A program made the position numbers and the translations under genes. 64,000 nucleotides of DNA, taken from Nanobdellota archaeon (GTDB lineage: Archaea; Nanobdellota; Nanobdellia; Pacearchaeales; GW2011-AR1). This document shows, piece after piece, positions 8,370-36,173 of this stretch (positions within the stretch are counted from its first letter, which is position 1; each line of letters begins with the position of its first letter). Below the pieces are notes generated by a model, which saw only the letters and a program-made list of their open reading frames with translations, was not told the DNA's origin and did no database searches. The stretch covers positions 985 through 64,984 of the forward strand of contig JAHISS010000087.1 of NCBI GenBank assembly GCA_018817905.1, written 5' to 3'.

Positions 8370-9187
8370 TATGTCCTCATCTTTGTTGTTTTTTCAAGAG
8401 CATTGACGCATGCTTTTGCTAAATTGAAAGTTGTTTTTGTTTGTCCCTGCGTTTTTGTGTAGGCGTCTTTGATTCCTGCGAGTTTAAGGATTTTTTTGCA
8501 TTCGTCTCCTGTGACCAAGCCGGTTCCGCGAGGCGCTGGCCAGAGAGTAATTTTTACACTGCCTGATTTTCCCTGAACTTTGAACGGAACTGTGTGGGGA
8601 ATGCTGTCTTCTTTTTCATCTTCTGGAGATTCAAAACCAAGGTTAATTTTTATGAGGTTTAGTTTTGAGTTCCTAACTGCTTTTTCCCTTGCTGGCAGGG
8701 TTTCGCTTGCCTTGCCAAAACCAACTCCAACATGTCCTTTTTTATCTCCAGCAACTGCCATTGCAGAAAATGAAACAACATTTCCCTCCTGGGTTTTCTT
8801 TTGCGTTTGCCTCCACGCTCTTCTCTTGCCTCCGCCAAATTTTCCCTTTGCCTGACCAATTAAAATCAGGTCTGTCTCAATATTCAAAAGCGAATCAACA
8901 ATTTCTGATTCTAAAATCTTTTTTCCTTTTTCTAAAATCTTGTCAATGTCTTTTTCTTTTTTTTCTTTTACTAATCTTCCAAGATTGGTTTTTGGAACCC
9001 ATGCAGCTAACAGCACCTTAGGATCTTCCCTCTGAAATCTCCCATCTCTCCGGCCGTATTGTTTTTTTGAATTTTCTGTTTTTTCTGGCTCTTCTGTTTT
9101 TTCTGTTTCTTTCTCTAACTTTACAACTTCTTCTGGTGTTGCTTCAACAAGATCTTTTGGTTCGTTTTTTGTTTCTTTTTCTGCCAT
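8369..9187 (-). CDS. rps5: 30S ribosomal protein uS5 (with KE-rich N-terminal extension)
   Basis: S5 dsRBD/C-terminal motifs; operon position. Confidence 0.9.
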   Translation of the reverse strand: MAEKETKNEPKDLVEATPEEVVKLEKETEKTEEPEKTENSKKQYGRRDGRFQREDPKVLLAAWVPKTNLGRLVKEKKEKDIDKILEKGKKILESEIVDSLLNIETDLILIGQAKGKFGGGKRRAWRQTQKKTQEGNVVSFSAMAVAGDKKGHVGVGFGKASETLPAREKAVRNSKLNLIKINLGFESPEDEKEDSIPHTVPFKVQGKSGSVKITLWPAPRGTGLVTGDECKKILKLAGIKDAYTKTQGQTKTTFNLAKACVNALEKTTKMRT

Positions 9188-9188
9188 T

Positions 9189-9509
9189 TTATTTTCCGTG
9201 CCTCCTTAATACTGCGTCTCTTTCTGAATGTCCTTCATCCTTAGGGCCATAGCCCCTATCTCGATTCGGATGTAAAAACGTTACTTTTCCATTATGTATT
9301 GGGTAGGAAATAACATCAATTGCTTGAGTTCCAGGGACCCTTCTAAGAAATCTTGCTCTTTCCGAATGACTCCTATAATTTCCTTCATGTGTCTCACTAA
9401 AAAACAATTCCAATTCTGATCCTTGATCGGGCTGAACTAACACCCTATCTTCAGACACGAGGTTTCTTGCCTTTAACGTTTGGCTTGATTTTATTTCTAA
9501 AGTTGCCAT
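9189..9509 (-). CDS. hypothetical protein (106 aa) inserted between rps5 and rpl18
   Basis: Clean ORF exactly filling the 323-bp gap with 1-nt spacers; not Lys-rich; no r-protein match. Confidence 0.45.
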   Translation of the reverse strand: MATLEIKSSQTLKARNLVSEDRVLVQPDQGSELELFFSETHEGNYRSHSERARFLRRVPGTQAIDVISYPIHNGKVTFLHPNRDRGYGPKDEGHSERDAVLRRHGK

Positions 9510-9510
9510 T

Positions 9511-9984
9511 TTATAACTTTTCCTTTACCTCCTTAAAGATACTTTTAAGCTTTTCGTTAGCTTCAATTCTTTCTGTTTTTGGCAAGGTGCTTTCTTTATG
9601 CGGGATTTTCAAACCAGCGTCTATTGCTCCTTTTACAAGTGCGTAGATTCTTGAACCGTGAATGTTTCTGTTCAGACCGAAATCTAAAATCGCTTCGTTG
9701 ACTTTTGTCTTTATGTTTTTTACTAGGAGGAATCCGGTTAAGTAAGCGGCTGGAAGAGATTTCAAACTTCCTGATTTTTCTTTTGGCCAACCTTTTTCAA
9801 GGAGTTCCTGCGAGCTCGCCTTTGCTACAACTTTGTCCTGAGCTATTTGCGATTCAACAATCTGAGCGATAATGTAATGATTTGTTTTTCTTACGACTAA
9901 GCGCGGTTTTTCTGACTTCAACATTGTAAATCTTGCTTTGTAGTCTGTTTTTGCTTGTTTTCGGCGACGTTTTAGAGTTTTCAC
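9511..9984 (-). CDS. rpl18: 50S ribosomal protein uL18
   Basis: RRRKQAKTDYKARFTMLKSEKPRLVVRKTNHYIIAQIV. Confidence 0.85.
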   Translation of the reverse strand: MKTLKRRRKQAKTDYKARFTMLKSEKPRLVVRKTNHYIIAQIVESQIAQDKVVAKASSQELLEKGWPKEKSGSLKSLPAAYLTGFLLVKNIKTKVNEAILDFGLNRNIHGSRIYALVKGAIDAGLKIPHKESTLPKTERIEANEKLKSIFKEVKEKL

Positions 9985-29202: not shown

Positions 29203-30141
29203 TCAAAAAGGCAACGTCTTAACATTACCTTCGTTTTCCATTAGAAGTAATTCTGAGTCTTGAATGTCTTGTTGAAAAGTTGAGTTAATGTCTTTTATAG
29301 CGTCTCGGAGTTCTTTTTCTTCTTGATAGAAGAACTGGATAATGCAGTTGTATTTTGAGATTCCGAAGACAAGCGCGTTGATGTTTTTGTGCTGCTGGCA
29401 AAAACTCTTGATTTTGTTTTTTTCTAAGGGGTTTAGCTTTAGCTTGAGTGCTGCAAAGTTGAATCCGAGTTTTTCCATGTCGAATTGGATTCTGTTGCCT
29501 AAAATGATTTTCTTTTTGTAAAGTTGTTTTAATTTGTAAGCTATTAGTTCTCCTGAGAGATTTATTTTTTTTGAGAGATCGGTGATCTTTGCTCTGCCAT
29601 TTGTTTCTAGTGCTTTCATTAATGCAATATCTTTTTGCTGTAGCGTTACTTTTGCGACTGGTTGCATGAATGTGTACGTTTCCGCTTCTTTTTGCTCTCC
29701 AAAAGTCTTTAGAGGATATAATGAGGACGAGGTTGTCGTGAAAACTTCATAATGGGTAATTTCTTTATTCTCTTTTAGAAGATTGCTGAATTTCTCTTCA
29801 AATTCGTCCTTGTCCTTGAAAACAAAGTCTACAAATAAGTCATATTTCGAAAGCGTTTCTCCGACGGAGACTACATTGGGACTTTTCTCTAAACTGCTCT
29901 TTATCTGTTGTTTTTTGGAAGAGACTTTTAACCAGACGATTATGAACTCGTTATAACCGAGAAGAGCGTAATTGAAAATTGTGACATATTTCTTTATGAA
30001 CCCTTGCGACTCAAATTTTTTCAATCGGTATTCTGCCTGGTCGCGTGAAATTCTACAGGCTTTTGCTATCTGAGTTATTGGTTTTCTGTAGCTATGGTAA
30101 AGATATTTTATTAGTTTTTTGTCTATTGCGTCTAGTTTCAT
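29203..30141 (-). CDS. transcriptional regulator with two tandem Lrp/AsnC-like wHTH modules
   Basis: DKKLIKYLYHSYRKPITQIAKACRISRDQAEYRLKKF and DIALMKALETNGRAKITDLSKKINLSGELIAYKLKQL. Confidence 0.45.
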   Translation of the reverse strand: MKLDAIDKKLIKYLYHSYRKPITQIAKACRISRDQAEYRLKKFESQGFIKKYVTIFNYALLGYNEFIIVWLKVSSKKQQIKSSLEKSPNVVSVGETLSKYDLFVDFVFKDKDEFEEKFSNLLKENKEITHYEVFTTTSSSLYPLKTFGEQKEAETYTFMQPVAKVTLQQKDIALMKALETNGRAKITDLSKKINLSGELIAYKLKQLYKKKIILGNRIQFDMEKLGFNFAALKLKLNPLEKNKIKSFCQQHKNINALVFGISKYNCIIQFFYQEEKELRDAIKDINSTFQQDIQDSELLLMENEGNVKTLPF

Positions 30142-30240
30142 TTTGGCATTGCTAAATACGGAAAGAATTGCTTAAATATCTTTTGTTTTTTAGGAAAATC
30201 TGGGGGATGTTTTTATGTATTTCTGGAGCTAGTAAAGAAC

Positions 30241-30456
30241 ATGGCAGTAGGATTGTCGGGATCGAACGGTGGAATCGGAAGAGTTTACAGAGCAGTGCTA
30301 GTGGCAGATGTCGAAGCGGGAATTACAAAGTACGAAACGCTTAGAAGTCAGATTCCTGAGGAAAATAGAGAAGTTAGAACAATGTATTCTGGGTTTATAG
30401 AGTCTTTGAGGGAGTTGCAGGCGAGCATGACTAAAGATAACCCAAGGGGTGACTAA
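30241..30456 (+). CDS. small protein (71 aa) whose N-terminus mirrors that of the downstream radical-SAM enzyme
   Basis: AVGLSGSNGGIGRVY versus VLGFSGSSGGVGKET; 8-nt overlap with the next gene. Confidence 0.4.
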   Translation: MAVGLSGSNGGIGRVYRAVLVADVEAGITKYETLRSQIPEENREVRTMYSGFIESLRELQASMTKDNPRGD

Positions 30457-31498
30457 AGTGGTCTTGGGATTTTCTGGTTCTAGTGGGGGCGTTGGTAAAG
30501 AAACTTTTGGGAAAGTTGGTTTAGTTAATCGGCCTTTAGAAGTTTCTTATTTTGTTAATAATCGATGCAATCTAAGTTGCAGACATTGTTATGTTGGATA
30601 TGAGCAGACTGATGGGGAATTGTCTGTTGGTGAATGGAGTGAAACGTTTGATAGGCTTATTGAGATGGGTGCTTTGACTTTTGGGAATGTTGGCAAGGAA
30701 CCTTTGCTTTCTTCGGATAAGACTATTGCTATTATGCAACACTTGGCTAAGAGGCGGGAGGAAATCCCTGCCTTGAGGTTTGGATTTGTCACGAATGGAA
30801 CTCTCCTTGACTGTAGAATGGTTGAAGATTTAGAAAGAATTTCTCCCGATTACATTGATGTAAGTTTAGATGGCGGCAGAAAAGTTCATGATTTTATTCG
30901 TGGAGATTATAATTATATTAGAACAGTTAGGAAACTTAGAGGTCTTCCTTCTGGTTTAACTGAGAAAGTTTTCTTAAGTTTTACTTTGATGAAGCCGAAT
31001 GTGGGAGAGTTTAGAGGGGTTGTTGGAGATATGAGTGCGTTGGGTTTAACAAAATTTCTTGTTTCTCCGTATGTTGCGACTCCTGGATCAAATGGAGAAT
31101 TGTTTATTAGTGATGAGGAAGTTGTCGATTTTTACGAACGAGTTGCTGATGGCTCTGAAATAAAGTTTGCAGACTTGCCCCAGATAGAAATAATCCTGAA
31201 ATCGGATTACGATTCTCAAAAAGCATTAATGGATAGATTAGTTGAACGGGGCGTAATTGATTTAGGAAATCTGTCAATAGATGAGTACGGAGTGATATTC
31301 AATAGGCACGTGCAAGGTGGTGGTTCAGAGGTTGTTGTTAATTACATGCCTTTTTCAGACACTCTCTCTAGGGCTGTTAGAATAAGCCATGATGGTTATG
31401 TTGGCGGTTGTTTAGAAATGTTTCACAAGGACTATCCTGAAAGAGCAAGGGCAAACTTGCGAGATAAGAAAATTGAAGAAATCCTCGGTAGAAATTAA
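30449..31498 (+). CDS. radical SAM enzyme with an N-terminal deviant P-loop-like Gly-rich segment
   Basis: CNLSCRHCY is the CxxxCxxC motif. Confidence 0.7.
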   Translation: MTKVVLGFSGSSGGVGKETFGKVGLVNRPLEVSYFVNNRCNLSCRHCYVGYEQTDGELSVGEWSETFDRLIEMGALTFGNVGKEPLLSSDKTIAIMQHLAKRREEIPALRFGFVTNGTLLDCRMVEDLERISPDYIDVSLDGGRKVHDFIRGDYNYIRTVRKLRGLPSGLTEKVFLSFTLMKPNVGEFRGVVGDMSALGLTKFLVSPYVATPGSNGELFISDEEVVDFYERVADGSEIKFADLPQIEIILKSDYDSQKALMDRLVERGVIDLGNLSIDEYGVIFNRHVQGGGSEVVVNYMPFSDTLSRAVRISHDGYVGGCLEMFHKDYPERARANLRDKKIEEILGRN

Positions 31499-32226
31499 TC
31501 GTCCTGCTCAACTCTCGGCGCAAGAACGAAACTTAGGACGACGTCGCCGGTGTGGAAGTCCAGCCGCATTGGATGATTGTCTGAGAAACTCAGGGTCGAC
31601 TGGTTTGAAATCTTTGCTCCTTTGATGAACTTGCTTAGATATTCCAAGGAAAATCTTGCTGTGCTGTTTCCTGAATGGATTTCTGCTTCGTCGGTGGAGA
31701 ATTCTGCTCTCGCGCTGTTTAGGCTGTGGGCTTCAACAACAAACTTGTCTGGTTCGGCTATGAATGTGCAAGCGTCGCTTACGACTGAACAATCTTCGAT
31801 GACTTCAGTTAGGGTGTCTGAATTTATTTTGATAACTGAGTTGAACTCCCATTCTGGCAATGGCTTTTCTTCTGTGTCTGTGTCAATCAAAGCGAGAGAG
31901 AAATCCCGCTTGATTCTGTCTCTTATTGAAAGTTTCAACAGGTTGTCTTGTTTTTCCAAAGTAAGAGCTGCTCCAATCTTGCATCTTCTTAAAACTGCTT
32001 TCAAATTACTCAGATTGACTCCTAACTCCTCTTCTTCTTTGTCTATCTCAAAGTCTGAGAAGAGGGTATTTGGAATTTTAAAATAAATCATTGCGACATT
32101 TGCTGGGTCGATTGCAACAAGGCTCATTCCTTCTTTGTTTATTTTAATTCTCACTTCGGTAACTAACTCTGAAATGATTGTTACAATGTCTGAAAAAATC
32201 TTCGGGTTTTGAAGTGTGAGTTTCAT
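31495..32226 (-). CDS. pcn: DNA polymerase sliding clamp PCNA (ORF extends to 32307; start trimmed to MKLTLQNPKIF)
   Basis: Two-domain PCNA pattern (LVAIDPANVAMIYFKI ... AHSLNSARAEF ... FSLEYL). Confidence 0.85.
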   Translation of the reverse strand: MKLTLQNPKIFSDIVTIISELVTEVRIKINKEGMSLVAIDPANVAMIYFKIPNTLFSDFEIDKEEEELGVNLSNLKAVLRRCKIGAALTLEKQDNLLKLSIRDRIKRDFSLALIDTDTEEKPLPEWEFNSVIKINSDTLTEVIEDCSVVSDACTFIAEPDKFVVEAHSLNSARAEFSTDEAEIHSGNSTARFSLEYLSKFIKGAKISNQSTLSFSDNHPMRLDFHTGDVVLSFVLAPRVEQDD

Positions 32227-32296
32227 GGATTTTGATAAGATAAGAAGGTTAAAAGCTTTGTTGTAGTAAGAGAACAACAAACAATAAATAACCTCC

Positions 32297-33877
32297 TTGA
32301 TTCTCATTGGCGTGGAAGCAAAAGAAAAAAGAGTTCGGGCGATAACAAGTCTTTATTACTCGAATCAGAAGGTTCAGCAGGCGATTTTAGAGTTTGCAAA
32401 AGATAGAGAAGTTGTGCCGCAGTATTTTGAAGGTTTTGGAAAGCGGCCTGACATGCTTCAATACCAATCTGACATTGATGGTTTGGTTAGGAAAGGTGCG
32501 ACGTCTTTTCATGCTTCTGAAGAGTTATGGGAAAATCCCTTGAGCCTTAATTCAGAAATAACGCAGAAAGAAATGACGAAGCTGCGAAAGGGCTGGGATT
32601 TGCTGATTGATATTGACTCGCCTTTTCTTGACTGCTCGAAGATTGCAGCAGGCCTTCTTATCGAAGCTTTAGAACAACATGACGTGAAGAATTATGGCGT
32701 GAAATTTTCAGGAAGCAAAGGTTTCCATTTAATGATTTCTGGAAAAGCATTTCCAAAAGAGTTTGATGATAAAAAAACAAAAGAAATGTTTCCAGACTGG
32801 GCGCGGGTGGTTTGTTCTTATTTGATGGATTACATCAGAAAAGATTATAATGTTATGGCGAGCGAAATTCTTACGGATTTTGATGCGATAAAGCGGCGGA
32901 CAAAATTAACAAAAGAACAATTGCAAGAAGTCAGGTGCAATAAGTGCGGCGGTGTTGCGAGAAAAGGTTCAATTGCAGAGTTTTCCTGCCCTGTGTGCGG
33001 GATGAACGTTAAAAGAAAAAATATCAAAATAACAAAACGAAGATTGAAGTGTTTAAGCAACGACTGCGCTGGAATTTTGGAAATTGGCGATAGTGAGGAA
33101 TTTTATTATTGCGAGGATTGCAAAGACCAAGAAAACGAAAACCTGCAGTTGAATTCAAGCAAGCATCCTGAAAATTTTGAAAAGTTCGAAGGAGTCAGCG
33201 CTGAAAAAGTGGCTTCGCTGGATTTGGTTTTAGTTGCTCCGAGACATTTGTTCAGAATGCCTTACTCGCTTCATGAAAAAACCGCCTTGGCAAGCGTTGT
33301 TCTTTCAAAAAATGAAATTGAAAAATTCTCTCCGAAAGATGCAGATCCTTTGAAAGTTAAAGTCAGGAATTTTATGCCAGAGAATGTTGAAGGTGAGGCG
33401 AAAAAATTATTGAGCAAAGCACTTGATTGGGGAAGGGGAAGGGAAATTGTTCAGAAAGAAATTGAAGAAAAAAGATACAAGGGGAAGAGTTTTGAAAATG
33501 TTGAAATGAAAAACATCAGCGAGGACATGTTTCCGCCTGCGATAAAAAAACTTTTGAAAGGTTTAGAGGAAGGAAGGAAGCGGGGATTGTTTGTTTTGAT
33601 TACTTTTTTGAAAGCAGTTGGCAAGACGCCAGAAGAACTCAATAAAAGTATCAGAGAATGGAACGAAAAAAATGAGCCGCCGCTGAAAGAAGGTTATGTT
33701 AGGAGTCAGATTGAATGGCATCTGAAACAAACAAAGACAATCATCCCGCCAAATTACAGCAATGACGCGTTTTATCGAGACATTGGAATCTTAGACAAAA
33801 AACCGAAAACGAAAAATCCGCTGGTGGATGTTCGGAGGAGGATGTGGGGGCGAAGTGGTGATAATCTGAAAAAATAA
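32297..33877 (+). CDS. DNA primase, apparent PriS-PriL fusion (catalytic small-subunit domain, Zn ribbons, PriL-like helical C-terminus without Fe-S cysteines)
   Basis: DLLIDIDSP and FSGSKGFHL are PriS catalytic motifs; CNKCGG...CPVCG Zn ribbons; FPPAIKKLL...GRKRGLFVLITFLKAVG is a PriL-CTD-like motif with A in place of C. Confidence 0.65.
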   Translation: MILIGVEAKEKRVRAITSLYYSNQKVQQAILEFAKDREVVPQYFEGFGKRPDMLQYQSDIDGLVRKGATSFHASEELWENPLSLNSEITQKEMTKLRKGWDLLIDIDSPFLDCSKIAAGLLIEALEQHDVKNYGVKFSGSKGFHLMISGKAFPKEFDDKKTKEMFPDWARVVCSYLMDYIRKDYNVMASEILTDFDAIKRRTKLTKEQLQEVRCNKCGGVARKGSIAEFSCPVCGMNVKRKNIKITKRRLKCLSNDCAGILEIGDSEEFYYCEDCKDQENENLQLNSSKHPENFEKFEGVSAEKVASLDLVLVAPRHLFRMPYSLHEKTALASVVLSKNEIEKFSPKDADPLKVKVRNFMPENVEGEAKKLLSKALDWGRGREIVQKEIEEKRYKGKSFENVEMKNISEDMFPPAIKKLLKGLEEGRKRGLFVLITFLKAVGKTPEELNKSIREWNEKNEPPLKEGYVRSQIEWHLKQTKTIIPPNYSNDAFYRDIGILDKKPKTKNPLVDVRRRMWGRSGDNLKK

Positions 33878-34046: not shown

Positions 34047-36173
34047 ATGAGAAAAAAGGTGCTGGCTGGCTTGTTAGTTGTTGCTTTTGTGGCAGTCTTA
34101 TTTTGCGGCCTTGTCACACCAGAAGATGATGACTCTGAAAAAATAAATGCTGCGTTCAATTGTTTGGATGAGAGAGTTGCTGCGACTTCTATCTCTCTTG
34201 AAGAGGCTGTGTTTGCTGCCTTGACAAAAGTTCCTGGAACAAAGGCGGCAGACAAGATAGAACAGGAAAAAAGTTCTTCAGCAGATTGCTGGCCAAAGTC
34301 TGGATGCGGGGTTAAAGAAAGCGCACAAGCTGCCCTGGCAAAATTAAGCATGGGTGAAAGTGTTGAGGAGATTACAGCATGGCTGGTTACAAAAAGCGGA
34401 ATGCCTAAAGAGCTCACTTGGTATCTGCAAATTTCAATAGGCGACAACGGGCCTGCAACATGTGTTGTTAATTACGACGGTTCTGATCATTCTGTAAGCG
34501 TGAACGAAGAAATGAAATTAAGCGGAAGTGCTGGCTCTTGTTTTAACTTGGCAAACTCTGACTATTGGTTGAAGATAAAAACTAACTGCTTAGAAAAAGA
34601 ATTTAACATTCAATGTGATAAAGAATTTAAGACAAATCTTTTGTACGAGAAAAGTTCTGGCGGCACGATTTATGTTTCTTCGCAAACGCATGGGGCAAGT
34701 TCTGGCGCTTGGACGGTTGAAGCAATAACAGCAAGATGTTTCAGGGAAGGGAATGACTGCGATTACGAAGCAAGTTTGTGGGGCGCTGTTGCCCTTTACG
34801 CAAACGGAGAAGATGTTTCTGAATTTGCACCTTACTTGCGGGCGCTTTCCTCGGAAAATGGAAAATATTTCCCAAGCGCTTTTCTTGTCGCTATTTTGGA
34901 AGGTGGGGAAAATCATTATTCTAAAATAATTGAAAACCAGCGAGCCAGACCAGAAGGAGCTTATTGGGAAATGCCCAACACTCCACACAACAAATACTAC
35001 GACACAGCGCTTGGAATGCTTGCCTTGGGCGGCGCTGGCTCTTCGGAGATAACAAACGCAAACACGATTGGTTATTTATTCAAAAAACAAGATGCAAGCG
35101 GCTGCTGGAATAACAACAATATCCGAGATACAGCGTTTTTGATTTATGCTGCGCAATGGTTGCGGGGAACAGGCGGCGGAGTAGAGTGTTATATTAATTC
35201 TGATTGTTCAGAAGGTTACGTTTGCGAGGATGGAAACTGTGTTTCAGAAGCTGTGTTGGAATGCAATAATAACGGCGTGATGAATGATTCTGAACAATGC
35301 GATGGAAACGACTTTGGAACTTTCAGCGATGGCGTTGGTCAATGTGATGAGTATAATTCTGGTTTCACAGGCGGTGATTTAATCTGTGAGGATTGCAAGA
35401 TTAATACAACGCAATGCACTGGAACAGGCCCGCCGCCAGTGGTAAATGGAAGTACTGGCAACGGCACTGATGATGAATCTTATGACCCAAACATGATAAC
35501 AGATTGCGAGTTGGCAAATCTTTTCTGCGCGCCAAGTCGAGCTTCTTGTTTGGAAAATGGCGGGAGTTTTTATCCTCAGGAAACACACGCCTGTGCTGAC
35601 CATTATGAATTTTGCTGCACTGTTGAAACTCCTGAATTGCCGAATTGTTTTAGTTTAGGGGGAAGTGTTTGCGCTTATGAAGAAGAATGCGGCGGCGCGG
35701 TGCAACAGGCCTCTGACGGAGCATGTTGTTTAGATATTTGTGAACTAACTGGAACAACTGGATGCTCTTTGGATAGTGATTGTCTTTCTGGAGAAACATG
35801 CCAAAGTGGTGCATGTGTTTATTCCGGTAGCAGTTCGAATGGGGGCGGTGGAGATGACGATGAAGGTGGAAGCAGTTTATGGATTTGGATTGTTATTCTT
35901 TTGATTTTAATCGGGCTTGTTGTTTTAGGAATAATTTACAGAGATAAAATCAGAGTTTGGTGGTTTAAGTTCAGAGGAAAAGCAAAAACTTCTAAAGTTC
36001 CTCCGGGAAGACCGCCAGGAATGAACTCTTTGATAAGAAGACCAACTCCGAGATTTATGCCTCAGGGGATGAGGACAATGCCTGAGCCTCAGAGAGCTCC
36101 GCCAAAACAAATGTCAAAAAAAGATAAGGAAATGGAAGAGACCTTTAAAAAATTGAAGGAGATTGGGGAATAG
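34047..36173 (+). CDS. large Cys-rich surface protein (signal peptide, possible alpha/alpha-toroid repeats, EGF-like Cys modules, C-terminal TM and basic tail)
   Basis: N-terminal hydrophobic leader, many Cys, TM IWIVILLILIGLVVLGIIY near the C-terminus. Confidence 0.55.
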   Translation: MRKKVLAGLLVVAFVAVLFCGLVTPEDDDSEKINAAFNCLDERVAATSISLEEAVFAALTKVPGTKAADKIEQEKSSSADCWPKSGCGVKESAQAALAKLSMGESVEEITAWLVTKSGMPKELTWYLQISIGDNGPATCVVNYDGSDHSVSVNEEMKLSGSAGSCFNLANSDYWLKIKTNCLEKEFNIQCDKEFKTNLLYEKSSGGTIYVSSQTHGASSGAWTVEAITARCFREGNDCDYEASLWGAVALYANGEDVSEFAPYLRALSSENGKYFPSAFLVAILEGGENHYSKIIENQRARPEGAYWEMPNTPHNKYYDTALGMLALGGAGSSEITNANTIGYLFKKQDASGCWNNNNIRDTAFLIYAAQWLRGTGGGVECYINSDCSEGYVCEDGNCVSEAVLECNNNGVMNDSEQCDGNDFGTFSDGVGQCDEYNSGFTGGDLICEDCKINTTQCTGTGPPPVVNGSTGNGTDDESYDPNMITDCELANLFCAPSRASCLENGGSFYPQETHACADHYEFCCTVETPELPNCFSLGGSVCAYEEECGGAVQQASDGACCLDICELTGTTGCSLDSDCLSGETCQSGACVYSGSSSNGGGGDDDEGGSSLWIWIVILLILIGLVVLGIIYRDKIRVWWFKFRGKAKTSKVPPGRPPGMNSLIRRPTPRFMPQGMRTMPEPQRAPPKQMSKKDKEMEETFKKLKEIGE

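Follow-up and report, generated by a model that had tools for sequence, protein, structure and literature searches.

The precursor peptides PqqA and MftA of the pyrroloquinoline quinone (PQQ) and mycofactocin pathways possess a core that is nearly invariant across distant taxa. A further arrangement is represented by the spare-part protein GrcA (YfiD) and pyruvate formate-lyase, a small protein and a large enzyme that share a glycine-containing motif targeted by radical S-adenosylmethionine (radical-SAM) chemistry. In the bottromycin system, the modified part of the precursor is the N-terminal stretch that immediately follows Met1, the rest being a C-terminal follower (PMC5103208). Borosins occur in a fused form, in which enzyme and substrate peptide are one chain that is autocatalytically modified (OphMA-type), and in a split form with an enzyme and a discrete precursor (bioRxiv 10.1101/2021.12.24.474128; PMC8429565). 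Here we analyse a 64,000-nucleotide stretch of the genome of a Nanobdellota archaeon (GenBank assembly GCA_018817905.1, contig JAHISS010000087.1, positions 985 to 64,984 of the forward strand; hereafter the window), in which a gene for a 71-residue protein precedes a gene for a radical-SAM enzyme and the two proteins begin with a common peptide.

The two genes form a three-gene cassette of DPANN archaea with a divergently transcribed double-Lrp regulator. The peptide, 12–14 residues long, opens both proteins in the same register (MAVGLSGSNGGIG in the small protein and MVLGFSGSSGGVG in the enzyme). We hold with high confidence that the module is real and functional. It represents the theme of a radical-SAM enzyme and a peptide, with an unusual and clearly documented cis/trans rule for where the peptide is found. 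The cassette comprises the following features (positions of the window).

29203 to 30141, minus strand: divergently transcribed double Lrp/AsnC-type winged-helix regulator, 312 residues (Pfam HTH_24, HTH_AsnC-type twice, weak AsnC_trans_reg).
30142 to 30240, no strand assigned: intergenic control region, with a TTAGGAAAAT box at about 30191–30200 and an AT-rich TATA-like box at about 30210–30222.
30241 to 30456, plus strand: small protein, 71 residues, identical to P0121 (KJ600_04515).
30241 to 30282, plus strand: shared N-terminal peptide of the small protein, MAVGLSGSNGGIGR, which fits the consensus M-A-x-G-x-S-G-S-N-G-G-I; residues 1–7 have a predicted local distance difference test score (pLDDT) <50.
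30265 to 30435, plus strand: predicted helical hairpin of the small protein, helices 9–36 and 43–65 (AlphaFold, 17-sequence alignment, pLDDT ~97).
30445 to 30452, plus strand: Shine–Dalgarno (SD)-like AGGGGTGA, read from the sequence in the last codons of the small gene, 5 nt 5' of GTG 30458; putative function.
30458 to 31498, plus strand: radical-SAM enzyme, 346 residues from GTG 30458 (349 residues from the in-frame alternative GTG 30449); Pfam PF04055.
30458 to 30499, plus strand: the enzyme's own copy of the N-terminal peptide, MVLGFSGSSGGVGK, in the same register as the family N-terminus.
30566 to 30589, plus strand: CX3CX2C motif (C37, C41, C44), predicted ligands of the radical-SAM [4Fe-4S] cluster; invariant in a 111-sequence alignment, codons checked.
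31409 to 31411, plus strand: C318, the sole other invariant cysteine, in RISHDGYVGGC (family RISHDGYVxxC); invariant in alignments A3 and A4.

The open reading frames (ORFs) of the small protein (30241–30456) and of the enzyme (ending at 31498) lie where a first-pass annotation of the window had placed them. The same two frames are present in the near-identical contig L001 (Logan ERR2191545), which derives from an independent sequencing run and assembly, so the split is not an assembly frameshift artefact. The best ungapped 13-mer match between the two proteins starts at residue 1 of both and has a BLOSUM62 score of 48, compared with 23.6 ± 3.4 (maximum 39) in composition-preserving shuffles, of which 0/2000 reach 48. 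Identity in the shared register is 8/15 residues; the similarity that the first-pass annotation had reported is borne out, and its count of about 9 of 15 is not. When the two families are compared profile to profile (hhalign), the probability is 97.3% and the E-value 2.5e-11 over the first ~27 columns, with nothing beyond. These comparisons show that small protein and enzyme share a homologous peptide of ~25 residues, and that the N-terminus of the small ORF is closer to the family consensus than is the window enzyme's own. Third codon positions of the motif vary freely (GCA/GCG/GCC, GGA/GGT/GGG/GGC, TCA/TCG/TCT), a codon-level pattern that shows selection acting on the peptide rather than on an RNA element.

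Homologues of the enzyme number 229, with 42–94% identity across the full length. In archaea they occur in Nanoarchaeota, Woesearchaeota, Pacearchaeota, Aenigmatarchaeota and Nanohalarchaeota; in bacteria, they are found in Desulfobacteraceae, Brocadia, Scalindua, Methyloglobulus, Sulfuritalea, Rhodothermaceae, Magnetococcales, Myxococcota, Patescibacteria, Saccharibacteria, Firestonebacteria and Phycisphaerales. Among 117 full-length homologues, 102 carry M-A-x-(P)-G-x-S-G-S at Met1, and the strict form G-x-S-G-S-[ND]-G-G lies inside the first 25 residues in 96 and elsewhere in none. The alignments thus identify M-A-x-G-x-S-G-S-N-G-G-I as the hallmark N-terminus of an uncurated radical-SAM family. 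The motif is followed by a linker of variable length and sequence, and then by a conserved PLEVSYFxNNxCNLxCxHCYVGY core. Tandem duplications of the motif have arisen independently in the enzymes P0026, P0094, P0113 and P0117 and in the small protein of locus L040, with 'MA' kept each time.

The small protein belongs to a family of its own. Searched exhaustively with HMMER, 1.84 billion representative proteins yield 18 clusters, nearly all 51–106 residues long, with a core family of 59–84 residues; a word-index homologue search with the small ORF recovers two proteins only. Identity within the family is 36–58%, and its consensus is MA[LIV]G[FWLI]SGSNGGI[GQ]E[VA]YRxFxxADVxAGIxKYxxL...IP...Y...I..L.EL. 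Across seven orthologues of the small ORF, identity at codon positions 1/2/3 is 0.61/0.73/0.47, the pattern of a coding sequence under selection. The identical protein P0121 is deposited as a hypothetical protein from a metagenome-assembled genome of a Nanoarchaeota archaeon. The AlphaFold model has a disordered N-terminus followed by a confident two-helix hairpin. A Pfam scan of the protein gives no match, and a Foldseek search of the hairpin against the Protein Data Bank returns no significant match (all E >1), the top non-significant ones being helical hairpins that include encapsulated ferritins. Wherever the context is available, the small genes directly adjoin the radical-SAM gene, in one or two copies between the divergent double-Lrp regulator and that gene (L002/3/7, L004/5/8, L009, L010, L012, L013/43, L019/31/41, L040, L046/47, L048 and two P0124 contigs). 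This position is kept in >10 lineages, all within a DPANN subset, and the small ORF, judged by its conservation, is a real gene; its absence in relatives, which the first-pass annotation had named as grounds for refutation, is contradicted.

Two members of the family depart from the single-motif layout. The 106-residue P0127 is a small protein that runs in frame into a second, degenerate motif (...REVGFSNSNGSIDG...), and L040 encodes, at 2201–2437, a small protein with two tandem motifs, MALGLSGSNGGIGK-MAMGFSGSNGGV..., from which the boundaries between a small gene and the next motif copy appear evolutionarily fluid.

The distribution of the peptide between enzyme and separate product follows a consistent pattern. 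The prediction tested was that enzymes without the motif should have a separate copy of it nearby, and all five assessable motif-less enzyme lineages have an adjacent motif peptide gene.

L004/5/8: enzyme with a six-residue deletion (MALGLSG--QVDL); two small proteins upstream.
L009: enzyme with a degenerate N-terminus (MASGILGSDRSTD); one small protein upstream.
L048: enzyme with an unrelated N-terminus; two small proteins upstream.
L049/50 (P0076): enzyme that starts MRVDNKRPLEV; 36-residue peptide MAMGLSGSNGGIKSSNIRRISFEEIQDLKKNLIVNK beginning 1 nt past the enzyme stop.
L051/52 (P0107): motif-less enzyme; 40-residue peptide MALGFSGSNGGISENIMAISKEAVYNLKENLQDDNLDKSE just upstream.

Conversely, the ~26 lineages without a small motif gene (all of the bacteria, and the archaeal L011 and L024) keep the fused motif with at most single substitutions, and eight lineages, that of the window included, have both. 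The peptide is therefore present at every assessable locus, across ~40 archaeal and bacterial lineages. As motif-less enzymes are always accompanied by a neighbouring supplier gene, the system needs the peptide and not its covalent link to the enzyme: by gene content, the peptide is shown to be indispensable to the locus and its attachment to the enzyme not to be required. Two further motif-less enzymes, L053 and L054, lie at contig ends and were left out of the count; directly 3' of them are toxin–antitoxin-type genes (MazE, HEPN, PIN; L053 1146–2199 and L054 998–1345).

The junction between the two genes of the window reads AGGGGTGAC-TAA-A-GTG-GTC. At homologous junctions, of the form TAA-N-ATG-GCN, the motif-bearing gene begins 1 nt, or 0, past the preceding stop (for example TAA-A-ATG), and the final codons of the gene upstream contain purine-rich SD-like stretches. 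Translation from GTG 30458 gives the exact family register (M-V-L-G-F-S-G-S compared with M-A-L-G-F-S-G-S), and the gene caller's start for the 94%-identical P0001 is the same. On the strength of the family register, the homologous junctions and the SD-like AGGGGTGA, the enzyme most likely starts at GTG 30458, after a 1-nt gap. The 8-nt overlap given in the first-pass annotation is then most likely an artefact of taking the most upstream in-frame GTG (30449). The 1-nt gap suggests translational coupling by termination and reinitiation. A recurrent C-terminus of the small protein, ...(Q)RG(D/G)-stop, coincides with the SD-like AGGGGTGA or GAGGCGA of the next gene (window 30445–30456; L002 5990–5999; L004 5575–5586), so that the C-terminal conservation may in part reflect a signal for translation and not a feature of the protein.

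PF04055 is the sole Pfam family found in the enzyme (1.5e-14; 55 bits compared with a gathering cut-off of 29.5). The subfamily profile search proposed in the first-pass annotation adds no specific family from NCBIfam: the best matches reach ~60 bits against cut-offs of 180–850 (NirJ, AhbC, pseudo-SAM, peptide maturases), so that the enzyme falls below every curated cut-off of the named maturase families. A role as a haem d1 or alternative-haem enzyme was rejected (NirJ 60.7 bits compared with 515, AhbC 56.4 compared with 650, auxiliary-cluster cysteines absent). In PADLOC the enzyme weakly matches pVip over the generic radical-SAM core (37 bits) and the small protein has no match; a scan of viral contigs finds no relatives. 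No curated family or paper describing this radical-SAM family was found in Pfam, NCBIfam, PADLOC or the literature, although absence there is no proof that it is undescribed.

The AlphaFold model of the enzyme (pLDDT 92, predicted template modelling score 0.90) adopts the partial TIM-barrel radical-SAM fold, with a Foldseek probability of 1.00 to CteB, SkfB, SuiB, viperin and MoaA. CteB, SkfB and SuiB are the top structural matches (template modelling score 0.55–0.67), and CteB (9.5e-20) and SkfB (7e-15) are the nearest relatives by sequence profile, with anSME, ChlB and PqqE close behind by profile or fold. Residues 1–12 have pLDDT <50 and residues 11–20 average ~52, ahead of a first strand at residues 27–31, so the motif is modelled as a flexible tether before the catalytic barrel. 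In the models of both proteins the peptide is always N-terminal and on a predicted flexible segment. Beyond the CX3CX2C triad and C318 there is no further conserved cysteine and thus no SPASM or twitch auxiliary cluster; the C-terminal strands of the enzyme resemble the SPASM/twitch region, and SPASM is only a faint precomputed match in some homologues. A role of C318 as hydrogen-atom donor or catalytic thiol is speculation. The invariant lone cysteine recalls the hydrogen-atom-donor cysteine of the radical-SAM peptide epimerases YydG and PoyD, a lead and not a test.

The third gene of the cassette, the 312-residue regulator, has Lrp as its best NCBIfam match, under the cut-off of that family. 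A homologue occupies the same divergent position in 16/16 clustered archaeal loci, and also in L048, L049 and L051; the archaeal homologues are ~315 residues long. Identification of the regulator as AhbA/AhbB was rejected (AhbA 36 compared with 140, AhbB 23 compared with 125), Lrp scoring 82. In the intergenic control region, a TTAG[GT]AAA box ~50 nt 5' of the small-ORF ATG is kept in eight aligned archaeal loci (window 30187–30226, L002, L004, L009, L010, L012, L013 and L019), and the AT-rich TATA-like box lies ~25 nt 5' of the same ATG. A direct repeat, D1, is also reported in this region, and L002, L004 and L010 contain a possible TACTAAT...ATTAGTA inverted pair. The placement of the boxes suggests a leaderless or short-leader transcript, and the boxes, with a putative promoter or operator role, are candidates for the sites at which the divergent double-Lrp regulator would act.

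The genes 3' of the cassette change from one archaeal locus to the next (TGT, LPG synthase, SMC-like, SSF transporter), and in this respect its three genes behave as a unit of their own. In the window, the PCNA gene (31495–32307, minus strand) is convergent with the radical-SAM gene, their 3' ends overlapping by 4 nt. About 10 nt within the divergent PCNA gene begins a gene for a 526-residue protein (32297–33877, plus strand) with matches to the primase small subunit (PF01896) and large subunit (PF04104), an apparent PriS–PriL fusion. A Holliday-junction-resolvase-like nuclease is also among the neighbours. The 708-residue cysteine-rich product of 34047–36173 (plus strand) is hydrophobic near its N-terminus and has a transmembrane segment at the C-terminal end and a proline-rich basic tail; it is surface-protein-like and unrelated to the cassette. 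Among the other loci, L003 carries at 8521–9720 a LAGLIDADG-type ORF inserted between the TGT and LMWPc genes and is otherwise collinear with L002 (both Woesearchaeota).

In bacteria the gene context is of two kinds. At 13–14 loci from several phyla, the radical-SAM gene is the last of a conserved operon in the order OppD-like ATPase, family-5 solute-binding protein (SBP_bac_5), two permeases, SIR2_2 protein and radical-SAM enzyme (5 kb upstream of the enzyme gene in L006, L014–L017, L022, L023, L025, L028, L029, L032, L035 and L036); the SIR2_2 neighbour resembles the SIR2 domains of ThsA and LmuA. In a second subset (L026, L027, L030, the saccharibacterial L034, and L037 of the Patescibacteria group), a divergent TrmB/IclR-like regulator is the sole associated gene. 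Homologues of the SIR2_2 protein and of the transporter were sought in the window and in the archaeal flanks, and none were found. What all contexts have in common is the enzyme with its peptide, and nothing else.

The explanation that we favour, at about even probability, makes the peptide the enzyme's substrate, in the manner of a peptide that is made by the ribosome and modified after its translation (RiPP) and either in cis or in trans. This reading draws on the paralogous small genes ahead of a maturase-like radical-SAM gene, the tandem repetition of the motif, its tether and the cis/trans complementarity. The peptide would enter the barrel, where a residue in the G-x-S-G-S-N-G-G segment would lose a hydrogen to the 5'-deoxyadenosyl radical, and C318 may complete the reaction, for example by donating a hydrogen atom in an epimerisation-type reaction. 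The fused copy would be the ancestral cis-substrate, comparable to the enzyme-fused borosin cores, and the small DPANN proteins would be trans-substrates derived by duplication of the 5' end of the gene; a motif that is ancestral to the enzyme family, with small genes only in a DPANN subset, fits this origin. Such trans-substrates would consist of an N-terminal core and a C-terminal follower, encoded in the same operon with stop–N–start coupling. The loci themselves show that the peptide can be moved onto separate products, either helical hairpins of 59–84 residues or peptides of 36–40 residues. The first-pass annotation had offered two accounts of the small gene, and both fit what was found: a partial duplication of the enzyme's N-terminus agrees with the homology, the ancestral motif and the DPANN distribution, and a peptide–enzyme pair of RiPP-like layout agrees with the conserved adjacency and the complementarity.

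The general layout of a RiPP pair is present, with one or more short genes adjacent to and co-oriented with a modifying enzyme and conserved in relatives. A leader–core polarity with a release protease is not seen, as the conserved element lies at residues 1–12 and no protease is conserved in the cassette. Because the core is near-invariant across two domains of life, the product would be a conserved one, such as a protein-borne modification, a cofactor or a signal, and the alignments point to this rather than to a variable antibiotic or toxin. A broader formulation is possible but tentative and on balance doubtful: a previously unrecognised class of radical-SAM enzymes may modify an invariant N-terminal peptide of the SGSNGG type that they carry themselves, and the outcome would be a cofactor derived from the protein, an altered N-terminus or a signal that is released, and DPANN archaea may have repeatedly off-loaded this peptide onto small carriers, which would make a fused and split 'N-terminal-core' RiPP/cofactor family of Archaea and Bacteria.

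Several observations weigh against a substrate role, which at its even probability rests on sequence and structural models that do not themselves predict any modification of the peptide. An enzyme that carries its own substrate would turn over once or modify itself, and such behaviour is rare. Among the clustered archaeal loci the cassette has neither a conserved protease nor a conserved exporter, and no RiPP recognition element (RRE; PqqD-like) is found, either as a Pfam match before the barrel or as a conserved gene nearby. The enzyme is without the auxiliary Fe–S clusters of the peptide maturases that it most resembles, and the small-molecule enzymes viperin, MoaA and BlsE are only slightly weaker structural matches. 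The complementarity has a hypergeometric p of ~0.002, which is indicative only as the lineages are phylogenetically related, and it fits any essential peptide that acts in cis or in trans equally well. The operon that the gene closes in most bacteria, with its Opp-like importer and SIR2_2 protein, could mean that the true substrate is imported and that the peptide has another role.

The complementarity and the flexible tether would also suit an essential binding peptide, one that docks, recruits or activates, either as a lid or activator of the catalytic domain or by binding a common third partner or compartment, with the small proteins as adaptors or co-recruited factors; we consider this, the main rival, somewhat unlikely. 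The peptide is common to otherwise unrelated folds, a barrel and a helical hairpin, and in the bacterial operons it could bind to the SIR2_2 protein or the Opp-like transporter. A short targeting peptide at one terminus is likewise common to encapsulin cargo proteins that are otherwise unrelated, an analogy only, and the non-significant top fold matches of the hairpin are encapsulated ferritins. However, no shell or compartment genes are seen, and the archaeal and bacterial contexts have no third partner in common, the bacterial candidates being missing from the window and the archaeal flanks. AlphaFold does not dock the peptide onto the enzyme, although a model of the apo monomer is a weak test, and substrates more typically show what is seen here, tandem copies and a paralogous small gene or pair of genes upstream of a maturase-like enzyme. 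A different role would be that of an autoinhibitory pseudo-substrate at the enzyme's N-terminus, with the small proteins as decoys or competitors and the real substrate a small molecule, for example one imported by the bacterial ATP-binding cassette system. The importer dependent on a solute-binding protein, the structural similarity that extends to viperin, MoaA and BlsE, and the tightly associated regulator gene of the archaeal cassette are in keeping with it, but simple loss of a purely inhibitory peptide should be tolerated, whereas enzymes without the fused copy always keep a separate one, and the core is nearly invariant in both domains; we regard this role as improbable.

Two simpler accounts, both raised in the first-pass annotation, fare worse. 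The segment is rich in glycine and serine, and pairwise BLASTP with composition adjustment reports no match between the two window proteins, as would be expected of a low-complexity linker or of a non-functional remnant of a partial duplication, in which case the small ORF would be no real gene. This is very improbable given the shuffling result with a match at residue 1 of both proteins, the hhalign E-value, the confinement of the motif to the N-terminus in the homologues, and a small-protein family with 36–58% identity, a confident hairpin, a coding-type codon pattern and a position kept in >10 lineages. The suggestion of a deviant Walker-A loop (P-loop) that binds nucleotide has in its favour the GGVGKE of the window enzyme, which superficially resembles G-K-[ST], and can be given practically no credence: the GxxxxGK[ST] spacing is lacking, Pfam and NCBIfam give no P-loop family match, the segment is predicted to be disordered and outside any NTPase fold, and the Lys/Arg is not conserved, the position after GGI being taken by G, T, S, N, D or A and the next position by any residue.

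As a putative substrate, the peptide can be compared with the described systems. The SPASM/twitch maturases (CteB, SkfB and SuiB; PqqE and MftC) are the best profile and fold matches and likewise have one or more small genes beside the radical-SAM gene. They differ in that the enzyme here has one conserved extra cysteine and no auxiliary-cluster cysteines, has no RRE domain or partner, and normally carries a copy of the conserved peptide, which here forms the extreme N-terminus and does not follow a leader on its C-terminal side. The small proteins have the same polarity as bottromycin precursors, with an N-terminal core and a C-terminal follower. The bottromycin enzymes are unrelated (YcaO and B12-dependent radical-SAM methyltransferases); here the follower is a predicted folded helical hairpin or a short helix, the cassette contains no protease or exporter, and a fused copy is present on the enzyme. 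The fused and split substrates of the borosins mirror the cis/trans pattern, by analogy of architecture only, as borosin enzymes are SAM-dependent N-methyltransferases rather than radical-SAM enzymes and their core is C-terminal. By these analogies, the system would combine a bottromycin-like follower, a borosin-like fused or split substrate and a PqqA/MftA-like invariant core. The G-[FWY]-S of the peptide loosely resembles the RVxG[FWY]S of GrcA/YfiD; in that system, however, the motif-bearing large protein is the glycyl-radical enzyme and not its activase, and the motif is C-terminal and buried in the barrel, whereas the present peptide often has an aliphatic residue (L/I/V) at position 5 and a predicted disordered state, and there is no Gly_radical domain match. 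A glycyl-radical spare-part identity for the small protein was rejected on these grounds, its N-terminal motif and its hairpin fold, leaving a loose analogy.

In bacteria the radical-SAM enzyme is associated with an importer of the peptide/nickel type and with a SIR2-like protein, a second association that merits a study of its own. If the peptide is indeed the substrate of the enzyme, the locus would define a new radical-SAM/peptide family that has an invariant core at the extreme N-terminus and neither an RRE nor an auxiliary cluster, and whose substrate most lineages have fused to the enzyme while others have it as a separate product. The locus would also offer a rare handle on post-translational chemistry in the genome-reduced DPANN archaea, where such cassettes are presumably kept for a reason.

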